A stretch of DNA of 64,000 nucleotides from Alkaliphilus sp. GTDB lineage: Bacteria > Bacillota > Clostridia > Peptostreptococcales > NVVX01. The DNA lies in NCBI GenBank assembly GCA_002733545.1, contig NVVX01000001.1, positions 45,099-109,098 on the forward strand. The letters are read 5' to 3'. Positions 1 through 54,640 of this stretch are shown here, piece by piece (the first letter of the stretch is position 1; the number at the start of each line of letters is the position of its first letter). The notes beneath the pieces are model-generated. The model had not been told where the DNA came from, did not search any database, and was given only the letters and a program-made list of their open reading frames with translations. A program made the translations under genes and the position numbers.

Positions 1-759
1 TATGATATAGAAAACAACGTAAGAATGCCGAGGAATGAACTACAAGCACTAAGACGAGATATGCAGATAATCTTTCAAGATCCTTATGCTTCACTAAACC
101 CAAGAATGAACGTTGGAACAATTGTTTCAGAAGGTTTAGTTAAACACAAAATTGCAAATAAAAAAGAAGCAATAGAAAAAGCTAAGGAATTACTAGAGTT
201 ATGTGGGCTTAGCGCTGACAACGTTGTTAAATATCCTCATGAATTTAGTGGAGGGCAGAGACAGCGTATAGGTATAGCACGTGCTTTAGCATTGCAACCG
301 AAGTTTATTGTTTGTGACGAGCCAATAGCTGCTCTAGACGTGTCTATTCAAGCACAAGTTCTAACACTAATGCAAGAACTAAAAGAGAAGTTTAAGTTAA
401 CATACTTATTTATATCTCATGATTTAAGTGTAATTAAGTATTTTTGTGATAGGATTGCGGTTATGTATTTAGGATCTTTTGTAGAGTTAACAACTACAAA
501 GAGGTTGTTTGAAAAGCCACTGCATCCTTATACACAATCATTGCTTTCCGCAACTCCAAAATCTGATCCAACAATTACTAAAGAAAGGATTATTCTTAAG
601 GGAGATGTACCAAGCCCTGCAAATCCACCAAAAGGGTGCAAGTTTCATACGAGATGCCCACAAGTGATGGAGATGTGTAAGACTGTTGTTCCTGAATTTA
701 AGGAAGTTGAGCCGGGGCATACGGTATCTTGCCACCTAATGGATTTGGACGCACGATAG
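1..759 (+). CDS. oppF: Oligopeptide/dipeptide ABC transporter ATP-binding protein, OppF-type; 5' end outside window
   Basis: Frame is open from base 1 with no stop before the track Met at 25. Contains FQDPYASLNPR, ABC signature FSGGQRQR, Walker B FIVCDEP, H-loop ISHD and the Cys/His C-terminal oligopeptide-ABC tail. Clearly paralogous to the ORFs at 8700 and 14717. Confidence 0.9.
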   Translation, partial: YDIENNVRMPRNELQALRRDMQIIFQDPYASLNPRMNVGTIVSEGLVKHKIANKKEAIEKAKELLELCGLSADNVVKYPHEFSGGQRQRIGIARALALQPKFIVCDEPIAALDVSIQAQVLTLMQELKEKFKLTYLFISHDLSVIKYFCDRIAVMYLGSFVELTTTKRLFEKPLHPYTQSLLSATPKSDPTITKERIILKGDVPSPANPPKGCKFHTRCPQVMEMCKTVVPEFKEVEPGHTVSCHLMDLDAR

Positions 760-869
760 CACTCAAATTGCTGCGTTCCACCTTATTTGCTCAATCTTCA
801 CGTACAAGTGCGTACGCTTCATCAATCGCAAATCGGCGCGCCTTGCAATTTAAGCACTATCGTGCGTCC
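747..869. repeat. MITE-like foldback element: 25-bp terminal inverted repeats (747-771 / 845-869, 22 of 25 complementary) around a ~73-bp core; left TIR contains the oppF stop codon
   Basis: Reverse complement of ggacgcacgatagcactcaaattgc is gcaatttgagtgctatcgtgcgtcc; the sequence at 845-869 is gcaatttaagcactatcgtgcgtcc. The region is visibly more GC-rich than its surroundings. Confidence 0.6.
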
Positions 870-969
870 AAACGGATGAAAGGATAGCACTCAAATTGTT
901 GCGTTACACCTTTATGCTCAATCTTCACGTACAAAAGCGTACGCTTCATCAATCGCAAATCGGCGCGCC
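755..969. repeat. Tandem direct repeat, two copies of ~88 nt (755-842 and 883-969), period 128 bp
   Basis: Hand alignment of the copies gives about 5 differences in 88 positions, including a 1-nt indel. Both end in cgcaaatcggcgcgcc. Confidence 0.85.
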
Positions 970-1012
970 CCCTCGTGGGTACCCGGAATTATCTTTAAAA
1001 AGAGTGGTGTTT

Positions 1013-1156
1013 ATGATGGATGATGAAAACAGAATATCGTGGAGGGATGCTGTTGCTATTTGGATAGCTACATTTAAAATAATTGGTCCACGAATATTAA
1101 CGATTATATTTGGGTTTATTTTAGCGCATGTTCTGCTTAGAATACTGTTTTCTTAG
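1013..1156 (+). CDS. Hypothetical small membrane peptide (47 aa, acidic N-terminus plus one TM)
   Basis: Internal ATG-ATG of track ORF 896..1156. The portion upstream of 1013 reads through the repeat and is probably not coding. Hydrophobic stretch AIWIATFKIIGPRILTIIFGFILAHVLL. The RBS is weak (agagtggtg). Confidence 0.3.
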   Translation: MMDDENRISWRDAVAIWIATFKIIGPRILTIIFGFILAHVLLRILFS

Positions 1157-1326: not shown

Positions 1327-3498
1327 ATGCATTTATTAAAAAAACACAAATTAGTAGTGTTGAAGATACTTATAATTTTTATTGTTTTAAGCTTAGCACT
1401 ATTAGGGTGCGAAAGCAAAGAAGATCTGGCATTTAGAGAGATAAATACTACAAGAGTCAAAGAGCATATCAAAGTTTTAACATCAGACGAATTTGAAGGA
1501 AGAATGATTGGAACAGCTGGAAATGAGAAAACAGTAGAATACATAGTGAATCATTTTAAGGAAATTGGGTTAGAACCTCATATTGAAAACGAATACATAA
1601 CTACTTTTAACGCGATTAAACCCGTACTAGGTCATCCTGTAATTTTTAATGTTGTTGATAGTGATGGCAATGTCGTTAGAGAATTTATACAGGGAGCAGA
1701 ATTCTTAGTTAGGGTTGATGATTTTGCAATGGGAGGTAAGTTTAGGGGGAGCATCTATCATATTAGCACGGACGAAGCCCTTAATAGCAAGGATGATTTA
1801 TTTGAAGGGTTAGCTATTCTTGCAGATTTTGATGATAAGAGCATTATGCCAACAGGATTTACGCAGAGTGATGCTTTACGTAGGCTGAGGCGTGAAAATG
1901 CGGAAGTAATAATTTATAGAGAAAATAGAGCAGCAAATAGCAGAAATATTAATTTAGGCAGAAAAAACCAGGTTAGAACTACTACTGGACCAATTATCAT
2001 AGGAGTAAGTGATGATGCATATGATGAATTAATAGAGTTTTACAATCAAGGCTACAAAATTACAATCGACTCAAGTCTTAAATTTATAGACGTCAAAGCA
2101 AACAATGTATTTGGTGTTATCCCAACTATAAATACTACTTATGAAAATTATATAATGATTGCAACTTCTTTTGACGGTTTAGGAATTGATGAACAAGGAA
2201 AGATGCATAAAAGTAAAACTGATAATGCTTCGGGGGTAGCGACTGTATTAGAACTTGCTAGTTATATCAAAGAAAATAATATGGAATTTGATTCTACAAT
2301 TATCTTTGCAGCATTCAATGGAAAACATACAGGACATGTGGGAGTGTCGCATTATAACACTTTTTCTCTGTATCCGCCTGATAGAACACAAGTAATATTT
2401 GTTGACAATATTACAGGAGTTGATGAAGCTCTCTTTACGCTTGGGAGTTACGAGTCTAGGAATTCGCAAAGAGGATTTAAGCACTCAACAATACAAACAA
2501 AGCGACTTTCAAGTATCGCGAATGAGCTACACATTGATAGCGTTGTAGATATGAATCATTTTAGAGCAGAGCACTCAGCATTTAGAAATAATGGAATCGT
2601 TGCTACTATTATTAGCACTATGCATGTAGAAGATTACTTGGCAAACGAGCCTGACCTAAATGCAATTGCAAATAATTCGGAGCATGTGTCTAGCATTATC
2701 ATAAACTTCTTAAATCAGCATTCGGGATTAATGATAATGAGCGAGTTAGCTTATCCACTTCGTAAATTCGCATGGTTTTTCGTGATAATTGTAGTTATTG
2801 CGCTTTTAAAGCACAGATATTTCATAAAGAACAACATGAGCGACAACAAATACAAGTTTGATATCTATAAAGGAAAAAGTAGTATAGATAAAATAATGAT
2901 GCAACCTATAGTAAGTGGTTTAAGCGTAGCTTATATATTGTTGATGATTAGCACATTAAGTGCTAGACATGTTGTCTCAAACACTATGGGGGTACCACTT
3001 GAAGAAGCATACACTAATTTTTCATCATTAATGCATCAGCTTTTAACAACTATTTTTACTGCTCCAGTACTTTTATATATGCTAGTTTTCACGTACCCAT
3101 TATTTATAGTTTTATTTATGGCGCTGATAATTAAGTATGTATTTAACAAATCAGGTGTATTGGTACATTCTTTGCTAGTAGCTTTAGCTATAGGAATACC
3201 ATTTTACTTCTATACTACTAAAACCATAGTAAAAGAATACGCAATGTTGTTCCCAGATATATTATCAAAAAGCAATGCTCCACTATTTGTAGTTGTATGC
3301 TTGATTCTACTCTCAGTTGGATTAAGCCTGTTGTATTCTTATGAATATACAATTAAGAGGGGGCACGGGTTTAAGAGCAGAATTCTAATAAGTACTTTAA
3401 TAATCTTTTTGGCTTTCTATTTAATGCTATTAGGACCCAATTTATTTTCAGCAGACATGATTAAACTTTTCAGACTTGGGATAAGAGTAAGATTATAG
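1327..3498 (+). CDS. Lipoprotein with M28-peptidase-like ectodomain (apparently degenerate active site) fused to a polytopic C-terminal membrane domain
   Basis: RBS GGGGGAG. Signal peptide with lipobox LLGC. M28-like blocks NVFGVIP, TDNASGVATVLELA and FAAFNGKHTGHVG. About 7-8 hydrophobic helices in the last ~260 aa. Paralog at 19264. Confidence 0.75.
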   Translation: MHLLKKHKLVVLKILIIFIVLSLALLGCESKEDLAFREINTTRVKEHIKVLTSDEFEGRMIGTAGNEKTVEYIVNHFKEIGLEPHIENEYITTFNAIKPVLGHPVIFNVVDSDGNVVREFIQGAEFLVRVDDFAMGGKFRGSIYHISTDEALNSKDDLFEGLAILADFDDKSIMPTGFTQSDALRRLRRENAEVIIYRENRAANSRNINLGRKNQVRTTTGPIIIGVSDDAYDELIEFYNQGYKITIDSSLKFIDVKANNVFGVIPTINTTYENYIMIATSFDGLGIDEQGKMHKSKTDNASGVATVLELASYIKENNMEFDSTIIFAAFNGKHTGHVGVSHYNTFSLYPPDRTQVIFVDNITGVDEALFTLGSYESRNSQRGFKHSTIQTKRLSSIANELHIDSVVDMNHFRAEHSAFRNNGIVATIISTMHVEDYLANEPDLNAIANNSEHVSSIIINFLNQHSGLMIMSELAYPLRKFAWFFVIIVVIALLKHRYFIKNNMSDNKYKFDIYKGKSSIDKIMMQPIVSGLSVAYILLMISTLSARHVVSNTMGVPLEEAYTNFSSLMHQLLTTIFTAPVLLYMLVFTYPLFIVLFMALIIKYVFNKSGVLVHSLLVALAIGIPFYFYTTKTIVKEYAMLFPDILSKSNAPLFVVVCLILLSVGLSLLYSYEYTIKRGHGFKSRILISTLIIFLAFYLMLLGPNLFSADMIKLFRLGIRVRL

Positions 3499-3701
3499 AA
3501 AAAAATTTAAGTGTCAGATAAAATATTTAATATATAAAAATAAAGGATATTACAATTACATGTCGAATAATTAAAAATAGGTAACAAAGACACAATAGAG
3601 ATATCTGAGATTTGAAATTACGGAAATATTTTGAGGGGAGGAAATAATAGTTCGTTTTTTGTAGTTTTATAATTAATACTATATAAAAGGAGGATTTATT
3701 A

Positions 3702-5438
3702 ATGAAAAAAAGTTTGTTATTATTATTGGTTTTTACTCTAATGGCATCAGTATTTTTAGTAGGGTGTCAACCTGCAGAAACTGATGAGCCAGCTGTCGCA
3801 GATGAACCTGCAGCAGACGCAAAAGCAGAACCAGCACCAGAGCCTGTTGATGATAATCCAGCGCTTGCAAGAGGAAATGTTTTAACAGTTGCAACTGGAA
3901 GTTTAGATGGAAGATTCAATCCAATATTATCTGGAAATGTATACGACACATGGGTTGTTAACCTTATTTTCGACTCTTTAATATCTGGAGATCCTGCAGG
4001 TAACGTTATTCCTAATGCAGCACATAAGTGGGAAGTTTCTGAAGATAAGTTAACATATACTTTCTTTTTAAAAGAAGGCATGAAGTTTCATGACGGTGTA
4101 GAAGTTACAGCGGAAGATGTAGCGTTTACTTATTACACAATAGCGCATCCTGATTATACAGGATCACGTGGTAGTGTAGTCAATGACATCGTTGGGGCAC
4201 AAGAGTATAGAAAATTAAACGGCGATGATGATGATGATAATGATATTGAAAAAATTGAAGGAATCAATGTTATTGACGATTACACTATTTCATTTACTAT
4301 TATTGAACCAAATGTTAAGAAAATTAGAGATTTTTGGCCAGGAATTATGCCGAAACATTATTATGACTTTACAGATTATGATGATTTCATTATGTTAATG
4401 CAAAATCCTATGGGTTCAGGAATGTTTACATTCCATAGATACCTTGTAGGTCAATATGCAGAAGTTAGAAGATTTGAAGATTATCATGGCGATAAACCAG
4501 AAGTTGAGGGAGTTATTATTAGATTAATGCCTTCTGAAACACAAGCTGCTGCTGTTGCTGCAGGAGTAGTAGATTTAGCAAATCCTTCAGCGAACTTAGA
4601 AAATTATGAAATAATGATGGAAAGTGGATTTGCCAATGTACAAGAATTTTTAGGAAACTCATATAGATATATTGGTTTTAATCTAAGATTAGATAAATTC
4701 CAAGATAGAAGAACTAGACAAGCTTTATTTTATGGTCTAAATTTAGTTGATTTTATTGAAGCAGAATGGGAAGGCTTTGCATCACCAGCGTTTTCACCTA
4801 TTTCTCCAGTATCTTGGGCTGCTCCGGAAGAAGGCGTATTAACGGAGTACCATTTCAATCCTGAAAAAGCTAAAGAATTGTTAGCAGAAGCTGGTTGGAA
4901 GGACACTGACGACGACGGATATCTTGACATGAATGGCGAGAGATTTACGATTACATGGACAGCATATGATGATGTTTCATGGCCAGTTAATTTAATTGCG
5001 GTTGCTAAAGAAAACTGGGGAGACTTAGGTATTGAACTTATAGCAAACTTAATGGAATTTAACGCAGTTGTTGAATTAGTTTATGACAATCAAGACTTTG
5101 AAATTTATAACATGGGTTGGTCTTTAGCAATTGATCCGGATCCAACTTCAATATTTGGACCGGCAGCTGATGTGCCAGGTGGATTTAACAGTATTGGATT
5201 CCACCATGAAAGAGCTCACGAAATCTTTAAACTTGCGTTACTAGAATACGATCAAGATAAGAGAGCGGAACTATATAGAGAGTGGGCTGAAATTGCAAAC
5301 TATGAACTTCCATACTTATTTGTTTCTATTGGAAATAGAACTTGGGGAGTTAATAGAAGAGTTCATGGAATGGAACTTGGACCTTATTATACATGGGTGA
5401 GCAATATAGACAATATAAAACTAGATTATACTGAATAA
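3702..5438 (+). CDS. oppA: Oligopeptide ABC transporter substrate-binding lipoprotein (family 5 SBP)
   Basis: RBS AAAGGAGG. Lipobox LVGC followed by an Ala/Pro/Glu-rich linker. Length and sequence typical of family 5 SBPs. First gene of an A-B-C-D-F ordered operon. Confidence 0.88.
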   Translation: MKKSLLLLLVFTLMASVFLVGCQPAETDEPAVADEPAADAKAEPAPEPVDDNPALARGNVLTVATGSLDGRFNPILSGNVYDTWVVNLIFDSLISGDPAGNVIPNAAHKWEVSEDKLTYTFFLKEGMKFHDGVEVTAEDVAFTYYTIAHPDYTGSRGSVVNDIVGAQEYRKLNGDDDDDNDIEKIEGINVIDDYTISFTIIEPNVKKIRDFWPGIMPKHYYDFTDYDDFIMLMQNPMGSGMFTFHRYLVGQYAEVRRFEDYHGDKPEVEGVIIRLMPSETQAAAVAAGVVDLANPSANLENYEIMMESGFANVQEFLGNSYRYIGFNLRLDKFQDRRTRQALFYGLNLVDFIEAEWEGFASPAFSPISPVSWAAPEEGVLTEYHFNPEKAKELLAEAGWKDTDDDGYLDMNGERFTITWTAYDDVSWPVNLIAVAKENWGDLGIELIANLMEFNAVVELVYDNQDFEIYNMGWSLAIDPDPTSIFGPAADVPGGFNSIGFHHERAHEIFKLALLEYDQDKRAELYREWAEIANYELPYLFVSIGNRTWGVNRRVHGMELGPYYTWVSNIDNIKLDYTE

Positions 5439-8699: not shown

Positions 8700-9674
8700 A
8701 TGAGAAATGAACCTATTGTAAGAGTAGAAGGACTAAAAAAGCATTTCCCAATTAAGTCAGGAGTAATGAGAAAAACTGTAGGATATGTAAGAGCCGTAGA
8801 TGGTTTGGATTTTGAAATAAAAGAGGGAAGAACATTAGGATTAGTAGGCGAATCAGGATGTGGAAAATCAACCACCGGTCGAACTATTATTAAATTGCTA
8901 GAAGCAACTGCAGGTAAAATATATTTTGAAGGACAAGATATTACATCTTTGTCTAAAAAAGAAATGCGTAAGTTAAGAACTAAAATACAAATTATTTTTC
9001 AAGATCCGTATAGTTCACTAAACCCAAGAATGACGGTAGGTGAAATTGTAGGGGAAGCACTGAAAGAGCATGGAATTGCATCGGGTAAAGAATTAGAGAA
9101 AAAAGTAATTGAAACTATTGAAAAATGCGGTTTAAGTTCTTATCATATTAGCAGATACCCGCATGAATTTAGTGGTGGGCAAAGACAAAGAATTGGAATA
9201 GCTAGAGCATTAGCACTAGATCCAAAATTTGTTGTATGTGATGAAGCGGTGTCAGCGCTGGATGTTTCTATTCAGGCGCAAGTTATTAATTTATTAAAAG
9301 AACTACAAAAGGAAATGGGTTTAACTTACCTGTTTATTTCGCATGATTTAAGTGTAGTAAATTATATTTCCGACGAAGTAGGAGTAATGTATTTAGGAAA
9401 TATAGTTGAACTAGCAGAAAAAAACGAACTATTTAACAATCCTAAACATCCGTATACACAAGCTCTTCTAGAAGCTATACCAAGCTCTAACCCTAGAGAG
9501 AGAAAGGAAGTAGTGCCACTAGAAGGTGAAATTCCATCGCCATCTAATCCACCATCTGGGTGCAAGTTTAGAACGCGTTGTCCTAAAGTAATGGATATTT
9601 GTTCGGAACAAGCTCCAGAATTTAAGGACATTGGAAATGAACATTTTGTAGCTTGCCACTTGATGGATATGTAG
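8700..9674 (+). CDS. oppF: Oligopeptide ABC transporter ATP-binding protein OppF
   Basis: ATG abuts the oppD stop. Walker A GESGCGKST, signature FSGGQRQR, Walker B FVVCDEAVSALD. Confidence 0.93.
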   Translation: MRNEPIVRVEGLKKHFPIKSGVMRKTVGYVRAVDGLDFEIKEGRTLGLVGESGCGKSTTGRTIIKLLEATAGKIYFEGQDITSLSKKEMRKLRTKIQIIFQDPYSSLNPRMTVGEIVGEALKEHGIASGKELEKKVIETIEKCGLSSYHISRYPHEFSGGQRQRIGIARALALDPKFVVCDEAVSALDVSIQAQVINLLKELQKEMGLTYLFISHDLSVVNYISDEVGVMYLGNIVELAEKNELFNNPKHPYTQALLEAIPSSNPRERKEVVPLEGEIPSPSNPPSGCKFRTRCPKVMDICSEQAPEFKDIGNEHFVACHLMDM

Positions 9675-9675
9675 C

Positions 9676-9843
9676 ATGTACGATATGTATGATAATAAAC
9701 AAAAAGAGAGCGACGAAAAGTTTAAAAGCACAGATATACTTGCTATGTGTCTAGCAGCCTTATGGATTGTTATACCATATGCTTTAGGTATTCTTGCAGT
9801 AATTTGGATCTTCTTTATATTATTTTCTGTGTTGTTTATATAA
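9676..9843 (+). CDS. Hypothetical small membrane peptide (55 aa), not in the supplied ORF track
   Basis: ATG 2 nt after the oppF stop. MYDMYDNKQKESDEKFKSTD followed by a ~35-aa hydrophobic tail. No obvious RBS; translational coupling is possible. Confidence 0.3.
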   Translation: MYDMYDNKQKESDEKFKSTDILAMCLAALWIVIPYALGILAVIWIFFILFSVLFI

Positions 9844-29235: not shown

Positions 29236-30774
29236 ATGCAATTAGAAAAATTGTTGAAAAACGTACAAAAAATAAATATAGTTGGAAAAGCCGAAATAAA
29301 CATAGAGAAGATTTGCTATGATTCTAGAAAAATAGAAAAAAACGACATGTTTATATGCATAAAAGGATTCGAGCATGACGGACATTTATTTATTGAAGAG
29401 GCAATAGAAAATGGTGCTACTGTTATTGTTGTTGAAGCAGGGCACAAATGGAAACACAAGGGGACGGTTCTCTTGTGTCTCTCTAAAAGGACACAACAGG
29501 ACACAAGAGAACCGTCCCCTTGTGTTTCTCTTCCTACAATAGTGTATGTAGAAGATACAAGAAAAGCGATGGCAGAGATAGCTAATAATTTTTATGAAAC
29601 TCCTAGTGCTAAGATGAAAATAGTAGGGATAACAGGGACTAATGGAAAGACGTCGGTCTCGTATATGCTTATGGACATACTGAAAAAAAATGGGAACAAA
29701 TCAGGCTTAATAGGAACTATTTCATATACTACAGGCAAAGCTAAACAAACTGCTATGAGGACAACACCAGAATCTATAGACTTGAATAGATTATTAAATG
29801 ACATGGTCGTTAATAATATGGATAGTTGCGTTATGGAAGTATCTTCTCATTCATTAGAGTTGGACAGAGTATGGGGAATTCATTTTAATGTTGGAGTTTT
29901 TACTAATCTCTCATCTGACCACTTAGATTTCCATGGAAATTTAGAAAACTACAAGAATGCAAAGAAAAAACTATTTACTAAAACTGAGCAATTTAATGTG
30001 ATAAATATTGATGACGAAGTAGGAGCAGAAATAGCAAAAGAATTTGACAAATTATCAACACCAGTATTGACGTATGGTATAAATAGTTGTGCTAGTATTT
30101 ATGCCAAGGAGATTAAGCTTACAAACTTGTCAGTGGATTTCGACCTTGTTACACCTACGTTTAATACTAGAGTTAGAATTAATACCCCAGGTTTGTTTAC
30201 AGTATACAATGCGCTTGCTGCTATTTCTAGTGCATACGCCCTAAAGATCTCTGAATCTGCAATTGTTAAAGGCATAACAAGCTTTAGAGGAGTTCCGGGA
30301 AGATTTATGAGAGTGCAAGAATTTAATGAAATTTCTGTAATAGTTGATTACGCACATACTCCCGACGGATTATTGAATGTGCTAAACACAATAAATGCTT
30401 TCAAAAAGAATAGAATTATCACTGTCTTTGGATGTGGTGGAGATAGAGATAAGAAAAAAAGATCTGTCATGGGTAGAATTGCTGGCAAATTGAGCGATTT
30501 TACAATTATAACATCAGATAATCCTAGGTCTGAAAAAGCAGAATTAATAGCATCAATGATAGTAGAAGGAATAAAAGAAACAGATGCTAATTACAAGGTC
30601 ATTCTAAACAGAAAAGACGCAATCAATTATGCAATAAAACATGCAAAAGTAGGAGATACTATTTTAATTGCAGGTAAGGGACATGAAACGACGCAAGTTG
30701 TTGGAGAGAAGACACTCTATTTTAACGATACAGAAACCGCAATTTTAGTGGGTAGAGAAGAGGGTATTATATGA
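29236..30774 (+). CDS. murE: UDP-N-acetylmuramoyl-L-alanyl-D-glutamate--2,6-diaminopimelate ligase MurE, carrying an in-frame repeat insertion
   Basis: GITGTNGKTS; DYAHTPD; and GCGGDRDKKKR followed by DNPR, typical of MurE. The ORF is intact at 512 aa despite the palindromic insertion. Confidence 0.93.
   Translation: MQLEKLLKNVQKINIVGKAEINIEKICYDSRKIEKNDMFICIKGFEHDGHLFIEEAIENGATVIVVEAGHKWKHKGTVLLCLSKRTQQDTREPSPCVSLPTIVYVEDTRKAMAEIANNFYETPSAKMKIVGITGTNGKTSVSYMLMDILKKNGNKSGLIGTISYTTGKAKQTAMRTTPESIDLNRLLNDMVVNNMDSCVMEVSSHSLELDRVWGIHFNVGVFTNLSSDHLDFHGNLENYKNAKKKLFTKTEQFNVINIDDEVGAEIAKEFDKLSTPVLTYGINSCASIYAKEIKLTNLSVDFDLVTPTFNTRVRINTPGLFTVYNALAAISSAYALKISESAIVKGITSFRGVPGRFMRVQEFNEISVIVDYAHTPDGLLNVLNTINAFKKNRIITVFGCGGDRDKKKRSVMGRIAGKLSDFTIITSDNPRSEKAELIASMIVEGIKETDANYKVILNRKDAINYAIKHAKVGDTILIAGKGHETTQVVGEKTLYFNDTETAILVGREEGII
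29442..29528. repeat. REPIN-like palindromic element inside murE: two degenerate 10-mers plus exact 29-bp inverted arms (29451-29479 / 29500-29528) with a 20-nt spacer
   Basis: Left arm gaaacacaaggggacggttctcttgtgtc. The right arm is its exact reverse complement. Each arm is itself a 7-bp-stem mini hairpin: ACACAAG-GGGACGGTTCT-CTTGTGT. Confidence 0.9.
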
Positions 30775-32291
30775 TACAACTAACAATTGAGAGCATTGTA
30801 AATGCGTGTAATGGAATAATAATCCGTAAAGGCGCTAACAACTATATCAAGGGTATTTCAACAGACACACGTAGGATACAACCAGAGATGTTGTTTATTC
30901 CATTAGTAGGTGAAAACTATGATGGACACGACTTTGTTATAGATGCGAGCAAAAAAGGAATTTACGCTACTTTAGTAGAAAAGAACAAGAAACTTACATT
31001 CTTAAATGAATTGGAGAACATCTATGTTATAGAGGTTGAAAACACACTTAAAGCTCTAAAAGACATCAGTAAAAAGTATAAAGAGCGTTTTCAAATACCA
31101 TTCATTGCCGTAACAGGCAGCAATGGCAAGACATCTACTAAGGATATGATTAGCGCAGTTTTGTCTTCAAGATACAAAACTCTTAAGAGTGAAGGCAATT
31201 TTAATAATCAAATAGGTTTACCTCTAACATTGTTTAATTTGGATAAATCTCATGAGTTCGCAGTTTTAGAGATGGGAATGTCGTCATTTGGAGAAATAGA
31301 AGGTCTAGTTGACATAGTTAATCCAAATATAGCTGTGGTTACAAACATTGGCATGGCACATATTGAAAACTTAGGAAGTAAAGAGAACATAATGAAAGCA
31401 AAAATGGAAATATCTAAAAATCTATCAGAAGAAGATATTCTATTATTTAACGGAGATGATGAGTACTTAAAGTCTATACAACACAAGGAACACATGGAAC
31501 ACATGGAACACATGGGGACGGTTCTTCTGTGTTGCTCTGAACTTGATTGCAACAACACAGAAGAACCGTCCCCGTGTGTTCAACAGAACGACACAGAAGA
31601 ACCGTCCCCTTGTGTTCCAAGATATAAAGCTATCAGTTTTGGAATGGATAAAACTAATGACTTTTATCCTGAAAAAATATATGATTTAGGGGATAAAGGA
31701 GTTGCTTTTGATATACTCATTAATAGGGAGACAGAAAAATTCTACATAAAGCAACCCGGATTACATAATGTTTATAATGCCTTAGTTGCAATTTGGGTAG
31801 GGCTGTTTTATGAAATTACACCTAAAGAAATAAACAAATCCCTACATTCATATATACCAACAAAAATGAGAATGGAAATAATAGAAAATAACAATTGTAA
31901 AATTATTAATGATTGCTACAACGCTAGCCCCAATTCTATGAAAGCAGCTTTGTCTGTATTAGCAAACTCAGTTGGAAAAAGAAAAATAGCAATTTTAGCT
32001 AATATGTTAGAAATGGGAAGATTTTCTGAAAAAGGACACCGATTTGTAGGAAAATGTGTAGCTGAGAATAAGATTGATATTTTGATAACTGTCGGCGAAG
32101 AAGCTAAATGGATAGCTGACGAAGCGAAAAACGCTGGACTTGATAAAAGAAATATATTTAAGGTTGGCAAAATTCAAGAAACAAACCTACTCTTACTAGA
32201 AATTATCAAGCAAGGGGATACTATATTAGTCAAAGGTTCAAGAGGTATGCAAATGGAAAATATTGTCCAACTTTTACTAGAGAGGTGCTAA
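30771..32291 (+). CDS. murF: UDP-N-acetylmuramoyl-tripeptide--D-alanyl-D-alanine ligase MurF, carrying an in-frame repeat insertion
   Basis: Start overlaps the murE stop by 4 nt. VTGSNGKTSTKDM, NFNNQIGLPLTL, DCYNASPNSM, VKGSRGMQME. Confidence 0.93.
   Translation: MIQLTIESIVNACNGIIIRKGANNYIKGISTDTRRIQPEMLFIPLVGENYDGHDFVIDASKKGIYATLVEKNKKLTFLNELENIYVIEVENTLKALKDISKKYKERFQIPFIAVTGSNGKTSTKDMISAVLSSRYKTLKSEGNFNNQIGLPLTLFNLDKSHEFAVLEMGMSSFGEIEGLVDIVNPNIAVVTNIGMAHIENLGSKENIMKAKMEISKNLSEEDILLFNGDDEYLKSIQHKEHMEHMEHMGTVLLCCSELDCNNTEEPSPCVQQNDTEEPSPCVPRYKAISFGMDKTNDFYPEKIYDLGDKGVAFDILINRETEKFYIKQPGLHNVYNALVAIWVGLFYEITPKEINKSLHSYIPTKMRMEIIENNNCKIINDCYNASPNSMKAALSVLANSVGKRKIAILANMLEMGRFSEKGHRFVGKCVAENKIDILITVGEEAKWIADEAKNAGLDKRNIFKVGKIQETNLLLLEIIKQGDTILVKGSRGMQMENIVQLLLERC
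31480..31618. repeat. Same repeat family inside murF: four tandem 9-mers (AACACAWGG), one forward core unit (31506-31534) and two reverse core units (31553-31581, 31590-31618)
   Basis: gaacacatggggacggttcttctgtgttg pairs with caacacagaagaaccgtccccgtgtgttc with one G-U. A third unit is gacacagaagaaccgtccccttgtgttcc. Confidence 0.9.
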
Positions 32292-54451: not shown

Positions 54452-54640
54452 GTGAAATAAAAAATGCACACGGAACTACTTTAGATTCTGACAATTCAAC
54501 AACTCTTGAGAAGCAAAAATCCTAAAACTTGCGAACTCGCTATGCTCAAACAGCGCAAGTTTCTAAACAGATTTTAACTTCTCAATCGTTAAGAATTATA
54601 GCAAAATCTACAGATGTTCCGTGTGCATTTTCTATTTCAC
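54452..54640. repeat. 189-nt imperfect foldback: near-perfect 25-bp terminal inverted repeats (gtgaaataaaaaatgcacacggaac / gttccgtgtgcattttctatttcac), internally palindromic with bulges, 20-nt apex
   Basis: Hand alignment of the left half with the reverse complement of the right half. Outer arms match 24 of 25. The inner blocks tagatt, aattc, ttgagaag, aaaatc and aacttgcg are all mirrored. Confidence 0.75.

Follow-up and report, generated by a model that had tools for sequence, protein, structure and literature searches.

The window examined here, a 64,000-nt stretch of an Alkaliphilus sp. assembly (GCA_002733545.1, contig NVVX01000001.1, positions 45,099 to 109,098), opens within oppF, the ABC ATPase gene of its first opp operon, and the end of that gene is occupied by a foldback element that is followed by a tandem copy of itself. 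Only the 3' part of oppF is present (1-759, + strand; open reading frame (ORF) 25-759), as the gene begins upstream of the window; the full gene in locus L001 encodes 332 aa with PF00005 and PF08352 domains. The TAG stop at 757-759 lies inside the left arm of the first foldback unit (unit 1, 744-872), beyond which come a short junction (872-882), a second unit (883-987), a ribosome-binding site (GAGTGGTG, 1002-1009), a 47-aa single-pass membrane ORF (1013-1156) and the gene for an M28-family membrane peptidase (1327-3498), which is syntenic in all element-bearing lineages. The small ORF has no Pfam family, adjoins oppF in relatives and is under codon-level constraint, as judged from codon-position conservation. 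All of these features read on the + strand, and the genes around the array are co-directional.

Unit 1 is a 129-nt foldback (element length 127-129 nt) in which a repeat search finds a left arm at 744-771 and a right arm at 845-872, each 28 nt long and 89% complementary to the other (25/28), around a 73-nt core (772-844); the right arm is also conserved. A first reading of this DNA made from its letters, referred to here as the original prediction, had described a 25-bp inverted repeat at 747-771 and 845-869 about a relatively GC-rich core of some 73 bp. That repeat is real and forms the inner 25 nt of the arms, and the element has a G+C content of 47-48% in a window of 33%. The left arm, which is the 5' side of the outer helix P1 on the + strand, holds the element-derived Leu-Asp-Ala-Arg codons and the stop of oppF. 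From an alifold consensus and pair counts, the core is predicted to contain a covarying helix P2, an invariant helix P3 (TTGC/GCAA plus TCAAT/ATCAA) and a central hairpin P4 (CGTAC at 801-805 with GTACG at 812-816); its blocks TTGCTCAATCTT and CATCAATCGCAAATC are invariant across all units. The arms do not carry an internal palindrome on both sides, and the ends of the element read ATTTGGAC and GTCCAAAT.

The repetition of about 88 nt of the element (755-842) at 883-969, previously reported with some five differences, is recovered at 93.2% identity over 88 columns (5 mismatches and 1 gap), with a spacing of 127-128 nt and a period of 128. The accompanying claim that the second unit has no right terminal inverted repeat stands only in part: its right arm is decayed, with a remnant at 970-987, yet a covariance model shows a full-length, degenerate unit (879-987; 58 bits compared with 147 for unit 1) in place of a clean truncation. 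The junction between the units reads ACGGAT and then GAAAG; the hexamer is either the right flanking copy for unit 1 or a degenerate left end of unit 2.

The whole 261-nt region is strongly structured on paper, and the folding check suggested at the outset gave a clear answer: both strands fold better than all 200 dinucleotide shuffles, the + strand at -76.2 kcal/mol (z -3.6) and the - strand at -99 kcal/mol (z -5.6). On either strand, the RNAalifold prediction is a four-helix rod. An intrinsic (Rho-independent) terminator can be rejected, as had been said, because no U-tract follows the stem; no stem with a T-run occurs in 600-1400 on either strand, and the + strand stem is followed by CGGAUGAAAG. 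No relevant match to Rfam 15 was found at E <= 10 in 500-1400 on both strands, and ARAGORN found no tRNA or tmRNA. A peptide encoded within the unit was likewise rejected, as translations show frames interrupted by stops in other lineages and no reading frame conserved across them.

Comparison with relatives indicates how the element came to lie at this position. In the window, the OppF ORF ends ...CHLMDLDAR, whereas the in-genome OppF paralogue (8700-9674) ends ...ACHLMDM* (ATG GAT ATG TGA), much as the original prediction had reported, and is followed after 2 nt by a small ORF. Two related loci also lack the element: in L010, OppF is 77% identical and ends ...CHLVDK*, with a 46-aa membrane ORF 34 nt on, and in L011 (Caloranaerobacter) the ending is ...CHFVDKM* and the small ORF follows after 40 nt. 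Among 120 OppF homologues, the ...MD[LM]DAR ending is restricted to the closest clade (at least 90% identity: P0001-P0005 and P0071), and all homologues at 77% identity or below end at or just after CHL[VY]. As the relatives and the paralogue thus present empty sites with the small ORF within 2-40 nt of oppF, and as the small ORF also follows the array in all element-bearing lineages, the array is an insertion between oppF and a conserved small downstream ORF. The native last codon or codons and the stop of oppF were replaced by Leu-Asp-Ala-Arg-TAG from the element, which agrees with the earlier claim that the element supplies the final residues and the stop. On sequence comparison, the insertion took place in an ancestor of one Alkaliphilus-like clade, right after the Met-Asp codons with which OppF ends in relatives.

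The element is present at the same oppF locus in four diverged Alkaliphilus-like lineages, all of them metagenome-assembled genomes (MAGs) or metagenome contigs: the window, L004 (CAZLXQ010000156.1) with L016 (GCA_021129785.1), L006 (GCA_053577075.1), and L005 with L015. Three public contigs are 100% identical to the window at the M28 peptidase gene, and a search with M28 homologues added no new independent lineage. The module consists of about 1.3 to 3.4 head-to-tail units with a period of 127-128 nt. The window holds unit 1 and the degenerate unit 2 (about 1.7-2 units); L006 has three identical 128-nt units and a 55-nt partial fourth; L005 and L015 have one unit and a decayed stretch of about 30 nt; and L004, continued by L016, has unit 1, 8 extra nt at the unit junction and a partial unit, for at least 1.4 units. 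The units abut head to tail, and the left end of internal units has diverged (ATGGACGAGGG instead of TTGGACGCGC). Variants specific to a lineage are common to the units of that lineage, window units 1 and 2 included, a pattern of concerted evolution in which units expand, contract and homogenise within lineages. Short-read contigs (L002, L004, L007 and L008) end inside the array; these breaks were considered as a sign of dispersal and rejected as such, because a local tandem repeat itself loops a k=31 assembly graph and so accounts for them. The 1.7-kb contig L004 is binned in an 'uncultured Sulfurospirillum' MAG, although its OppF is 96% identical to the Alkaliphilus protein and it carries the same repeat; it is almost certainly mis-binned.

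Target-site duplications had been named among the things to look for, and the evidence for one cuts both ways. Unit 1 is flanked by a 6-nt direct repeat whose left copy, ATGGAT at 739-744, is formed by the native Met-Asp codons of OppF and whose right copy is ACGGAT (872-877). The corresponding pairs are ATGGAT/ATGGAC in L006 and ATGGAC/ATGGAC in L005, and an ATGGAY repeat is found in 4/4 lineages. The hexamer after the right arm resembles a target-site duplication and can equally well be read as the start of the next tandem unit.

Unit 1 is conserved far beyond its surroundings. Identity to the window at four-fold sites of oppF is 0.70 in L004, 0.64 in L006 and 0.54 in L005, compared with 0.92, 0.86 and 0.905, respectively, for foldback unit 1. 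The arms match the window at 52/52 positions in L004, 47/52 in L006 and 51/52 in L005, and core identity between the window and the other lineages is 0.82-0.87. The left arm is identical in L004 and has one change in L005, while the changes in L006 keep or improve pairing. In a sliding comparison with L005, the final 60 nt of oppF have an identity of 0.68, which steps up to 0.92 at the boundary of the element, holds at 0.83-0.92 through unit 1 and then collapses; the stretch separating the small ORF from the M28 gene cannot be aligned between the two (0.35). The opp operon of L005 is reduced to the last 244 codons of oppF, and its foldback is intact. The L005 fragment (2327-3864) stands beside sigma-70 and TrmK genes, and its identity to the window at codon positions 1, 2 and 3 is 0.93, 0.96 and 0.60; the M28 gene of L005 is interrupted at a run of G, possibly through a sequencing error.

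Compensatory change points in the same direction. Double-sided changes affect 4 base pairs in 6 cells. The figure for slid controls is 0-1, and 0-1 of 500 shuffles have at least as many double-change cells as observed. The four pairs are an A-U to G-C change in P1 of L006 and three P2 pairs that differ between L005 and L006. Because conservation lies far above that of neutral sites and is accompanied by compensatory base-pair changes, unit 1, intact in every lineage, appears to be a folded nucleic acid under purifying selection.

Whether the element is confined to this locus was addressed by several searches. BLAST and an unfiltered covariance-model search found no second locus in the 64-kb window, and the covariance model found no further copies in 133 kb made up of the window and ten related loci. 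BLAST of the element had no match among PLSDB plasmids or INPHARED phages. A both-arm pattern run over 185,579 species genomes (one per species) returned only the orthologous locus L004, a pattern that would miss arms of the L006 type. The invariant core motif gave one chance match in JGI metagenome contigs, in a response-regulator gene of a high-G+C organism, in a collection apparently without the window's own contig, and two scans of IMG/VR viral sequences gave chance matches only; these collection scans used exact patterns. Six-frame translations of the unit, used to look for spurious ORFs called over other copies, matched none of 5.8 billion proteins, a test of low power, as it needs more than about 25 matching residues. 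No transposase, RAYT/Y1 transposase, recombinase, integrase, relaxase or reverse transcriptase is encoded in the 64-kb window. As a positive control, an unrelated foldback family (core CACAAGGGGACGGTTCT) was readily detected, with two copies in the window and more in L005 and L015. A high-copy family is thereby excluded.

A low-copy mobile family is harder to dismiss. The element would then be one copy of a foldback family resembling miniature inverted-repeat transposable elements (MITEs) or REPINs, with other members and a transposase elsewhere in the genomes, and its conservation would come from constraint on the family (recognition by the transposase) and from gene conversion by other copies, and not from a host function. 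Such an origin fits the 25-28-nt terminal inverted repeats around a 73-nt spacer, the flanking ATGGAY repeat, the insertion demonstrated by empty sites and a G+C content foreign to the intergenic DNA of the host, as well as the presence in the genome of another foldback family in frame in murE and murF. At the same junction, L012 carries a different insertion, some 355 nt long and bordered by a duplicate of the oppF end, and complete genomes of the clade lie outside what was searched for copies. The geometry of arms and spacer is also that of REPINs, whose inverted arms, each about 25 nt long, are separated by about 71 bp and form a hairpin, and which sometimes also occur as tandem arrays of near-identical units (PMC3116915). 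Set against this are the zero further copies in 64 kb, 133 kb and all collections searched, the lack of any transposase, RAYT or recombinase in the window and a flanking hexamer that serves equally well as the start of a tandem unit; an orthologous copy has moreover been kept in four lineages with compensatory changes, whereas a dead copy would decay. A low-copy mobile family is judged unlikely. The original prediction, which had called the element MITE-like and favoured a mobile repeat, is borne out as to a foldback insertion with empty sites and not as to a dispersed family; the same sequence after oppF in four diverged lineages, with no other copies found, is largely the pattern it had named as pointing to a locus-specific regulatory RNA.

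In anatomy, REPINs remain the closest known system, followed by co-transcribed foldback MITEs of about 100-150 nt (ERIC/IRU, Correia, RUP and BOX). Like the REPINs or REP-BIME of Pseudomonas and enterobacteria, the element has two inverted arms of about 25 nt at a 71-73-nt spacing that form one long hairpin, and its 73-nt spacer falls in the range of about 70-110 nt of the REPIN doublet hairpin. Unlike it, REPINs number tens to hundreds per genome, depend on RAYT and have arms that are each a small palindrome; the present element is found at one locus, with no RAYT in 64 kb, with non-palindromic arms and in a Firmicute host. REP hairpins stabilise upstream mRNA. ERIC/IRU, Correia (NEMIS), RUP and BOX elements are foldbacks of 100-150 nt with terminal inverted repeats that are co-transcribed, change mRNA stability or processing and sometimes overlap gene ends, and BOX elements vary in the number of internal subunits. 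They differ from the element in being dispersed multi-copy families, and there is no sequence similarity to it and no Rfam match; we know of none that exists as a single-locus head-to-tail array at one orthologous site. Of the features that define MITEs, terminal inverted repeats on a short non-coding element are present, and dispersed copies were not found in exact-pattern collection scans of limited power.

Other comparisons fit less well. Bacterial variable number tandem repeats (VNTRs) or minisatellites share the fixed 128-nt period, the 1.3 to 3.4 copies in close lineages and the within-lineage homogenisation; their units, however, are not normally conserved across species well above neutral levels, nor with compensatory pair changes. 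Integron attC sites resemble the element as imperfect hairpins of about 60-140 nt that start from or within the stop codon of the preceding ORF and whose bottom strand, the functional one in attC, folds better. The RYYYAAC / GTTRRRY ends of attC are absent from the element, no integrase is present and no gene cassettes lie between the units; attC was rejected on the ends of the element and on the lack of a tyrosine recombinase in the window. ToxI-like repeats of type III toxin-antitoxin systems, which are 34-45 nt long, in tandem and placed right before an endoribonuclease toxin gene, were rejected, as the period here is 128 nt and the 47-aa ORF is repeat-free in relatives and in the paralogous operon. 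The variable and template repeats (VR/TR) of a diversity-generating retroelement, which differ at template adenines and have the VR in a coding region, were also rejected, since only 13 nt of copy 1 precede the oppF stop, the L006 units are identical and no reverse transcriptase is encoded in the window. Above-neutral conservation and compensatory substitutions, as expected of a generic conserved structured nucleic acid, are both present, in four lineages only. The element can thus be described as a foldback of MITE/REPIN-like build that appears to exist as a single-locus (as far as searched), selectively maintained tandem array. A literature search on Alkaliphilus repeats and on Clostridia MITEs supplying stop codons found nothing relevant.

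The explanation favoured here is that this locus-specific (as far as searched), selectively maintained foldback is probably a cis-acting structured nucleic acid in the opp operon. What it would do there can be stated more tentatively, and an intercistronic RNA structure that blocks decay or defines a processing site is put forward at somewhat less than an even chance. The array is probably transcribed in the + sense within an oppABCDF-small-ORF mRNA, because the small ORF is still conserved and no convincing promoter lies between it and oppF. In that transcript, unit 1 would form a stem-loop (28-nt arms, 25/28 paired) that includes the oppF stop, so that the stem could close only once the ribosome terminating on oppF has left. 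The stem-loop would then block 3'-to-5' decay and protect the upstream opp message, or define a processing site, and either would fix how much opp mRNA there is relative to mRNA of the downstream small ORF, in the way of REP/BIME and ERIC elements in enterobacteria. Slippage or unequal recombination would have produced the extra units as by-products. As to origin, the simplest course would be insertion of a MITE/REPIN-like foldback that was fixed and then co-opted, and domestication of a foldback insertion is probable.

Several points weigh against this explanation. Locus specificity rests on the window, the related loci and collections scanned with exact patterns, with no complete clade genome scanned. 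The covariation is supportive and not conclusive, because it comes from only four lineages, all MAGs or metagenome contigs. The role of the array as RNA is one that we infer. The window and L006 form a recombination mosaic, so that part of their similarity could be due to gene flow and not to selection; gene flow may contribute for this pair and cannot explain the sharp identity island against L005. A decay-blocking hairpin requires structure only, and the sequence is nevertheless almost frozen (arms 51/52 at about 50% neutral divergence, P3 invariant), which seems to point to a sequence-specific partner. Finally, the - strand is the more stable in 4/4 lineages (-61 to -68 compared with -51 to -60 kcal/mol; unit 1, -/+ strand: -67.9/-51.0, -61.3/-53.0, -62.4/-60.2 and -64.3/-53.1 kcal/mol). 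Of a 50-pair consensus, which was derived by folding the - strand and so biases the count toward it, 47-50 pairs (4-8 G.U) form on the - strand and 40-46 (0-1 G.U) on the + strand, and each of the three mismatches in P1 reads C.A on the + strand. In P2 the + strand has a slight advantage (91% compared with 80% of cells paired), and this, together with the origin of the consensus, keeps both strands as candidates for the acting one.

A more ambitious proposal extends the favoured one. Unit 1 could be a previously undescribed structured RNA derived from a domesticated foldback and confined to the Alkaliphilus clade, whose outer helix would be gated by the ribosome terminating on oppF; as a translation-coupled riboregulator it could control the downstream genes for the small membrane protein and the peptidase, or it could be a rod-like antisense small RNA from the - strand, with copy number as a heritable dosage dial. 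As a whole this is improbable. An alternative hairpin between the right arm of unit 1 and the left arm of unit 2 is predicted in three lineages (-19 to -29 kcal/mol) and is weak in L005; as a ribosome-gated structure it was rejected as independent evidence, being an automatic consequence of tandem foldbacks.

Taken by itself, the - strand RNA would be transcribed antisense to the 3' end of oppF, each unit giving one rod-like small RNA about 130 nt long, and it would act in trans or on the expression of opp. In favour of it are a free energy that is lower on this strand in 4/4 lineages, the better z-score given above, the same four-helix rod on the - strand in three of the four and the 4-8 G.U pairs that become C.A mismatches when read on the + strand. 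On the - strand, the changes specific to a lineage are of the types G.U to A.U and G-C to G.U, and L006 has converted two of the three P1 mismatches to pairs, each a G.U to A.U change on that strand. High G+C in an A+T-rich genome, too, is typical of structured RNA genes. However, no convincing promoter was found in the array on either strand, with no excess of promoter-like sites in 600-1400, and there is no convincing - strand terminator; a -10-like GATAAT/TATAAT by the small-ORF ribosome-binding site is without a -35 box and is not conserved in L005. The surrounding genes are all on the + strand, P2 favours the + strand, and the pair count is biased by the strand from which it was derived. 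Such an RNA is considered doubtful, and rather more so than a mobile family.

A site that acts at the level of DNA is less probable still. In this case, the array would be a series of sequence-specific protein-binding or recombination sites, recognized in double-stranded form or as single-stranded hairpins in the manner of attC, IS200/REP or oriT. Near-invariant arms and P3 suit protein recognition better than they suit a generic RNA hairpin, and the better folding of the bottom strand, at the 3' end of an ORF, recalls the geometry of attC. Divergence between the window and L006 also shifts abruptly across the array (80-87% identity to the left, 94-96% to the right), as at a recombination-prone site. 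The attC core sites are absent, as noted, no integrase, recombinase or relaxase is encoded in 64 kb, and the compensatory changes in P2 indicate selection on intrastrand pairing and not on a duplex binding site. Last, a chance palindromic insertion duplicated by slippage and without function would accord with drifting copy number, decayed terminal units (the unit 2 right arm in the window, unit 2 in L005) and extra OppF residues that are unlikely to matter, and is already disfavoured as very improbable, given unit 1 identities of 0.86-0.92 against 0.54-0.70 at four-fold sites beside an unalignable neighbouring spacer, the compensatory substitutions and retention of the element in L005 despite loss of most of the opp operon.

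The mosaic relation of the window to L006 can be followed along the locus. In window coordinates from -1000 to 3000, identity between L001/window and L006 is 92-99% upstream of 0 and 80-87% across 150-900; past the array it is 94-96% at 995-1200 and then variable (67-91%). The pattern indicates that homologous recombination has occurred, and one of the transitions falls at the repeat array or close to it.

Small bacterial foldback repeats are usually treated as selfish, dispersed and decaying. The element described here differs in occupying a single orthologous site, where it has rewritten the end of an ABC-transporter gene and varies in copy number, and is yet under apparent purifying selection. 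If the favoured cis-acting role were confirmed, it would offer a clean natural case in which an operon has taken over a foldback insertion as a structured cis element, and in a host phylum where REP-like biology is little studied. The array also matters for annotation, as gene callers extend a spurious ORF of about 80 aa through unit 2 and assemblies break inside the array.

The small ORF behind the array belongs to a wider group. In several Clostridia, and in two opp operons of the window, a conserved single-pass membrane ORF of 46-59 aa comes right behind oppF (window 1013-1156 and 9676-9840; L010 5025-5165; L011 5034-5180; L012 5391-5570), with a common motif of about the form [WF]-[RK]-D-x-[IVF]-A-x-x-I-A-x-[YF]-x-I-x-x-P-[RK]. 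A possible role for its product is that of an accessory subunit, so far unannotated, of these Opp transporters. Public gene calls give instead an ORF of 80-86 aa that runs from unit 2 into the small membrane ORF (window 896-1156; L001 5588-5830); the true start is most likely the ATG at 1013 or 1016, behind GAGTGGTG, and the longer call spurious. In L012, the insertion at the same junction is A+T-rich and is accompanied by a 28-nt duplication (82% identical) of the oppF end, with copies at 4974-5001 and 5329-5356. Insertions may thus land repeatedly at the oppF/small-ORF junction.

A long-range inverted repeat (region 1183-1283, + strand) lies downstream of the small ORF and ahead of the M28 gene; its 15-nt arms, at 1183-1197 and 1264-1278, stand 66 nt apart and are followed by TTTTT. 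It is conserved in L006 and L016 and has no Rfam match. It is likely the terminator of the opp transcript, one with a large loop; alternatively, it could be a leader structure for the peptidase gene. The 56 ORFs of the window are all housekeeping genes, including three opp operons, M28 peptidases, the dcw cluster and sporulation genes.

Other foldback sequences occur in the same DNA. The CACAAGGGGACGGTTCT family has copies at 29451-29528 and 31480-31620 in the window, 1660-1776 and 4187-4218 in L005 and 224-255 in L015, with arms of 29-36 nt that are 92-100% complementary. The two window copies lie in frame in genes for essential Mur ligases, ORF 29236-30774 (murE) and murF (30771-32291), which recalls the Rickettsia palindromic elements found within coding sequence. 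The insert in murF adds ...HMEHMEHMGTVLLCCSELDCNNTEEPSPCVQQNDTEEPSPCVP... to the protein and includes a 36-nt partial duplication and a 9-nt repeat present three times. A further inverted repeat, with 39-nt arms (54452-54490 and 54602-54640) that are 87% complementary and 111 nt apart, is located in the spacer upstream of spoIVA.

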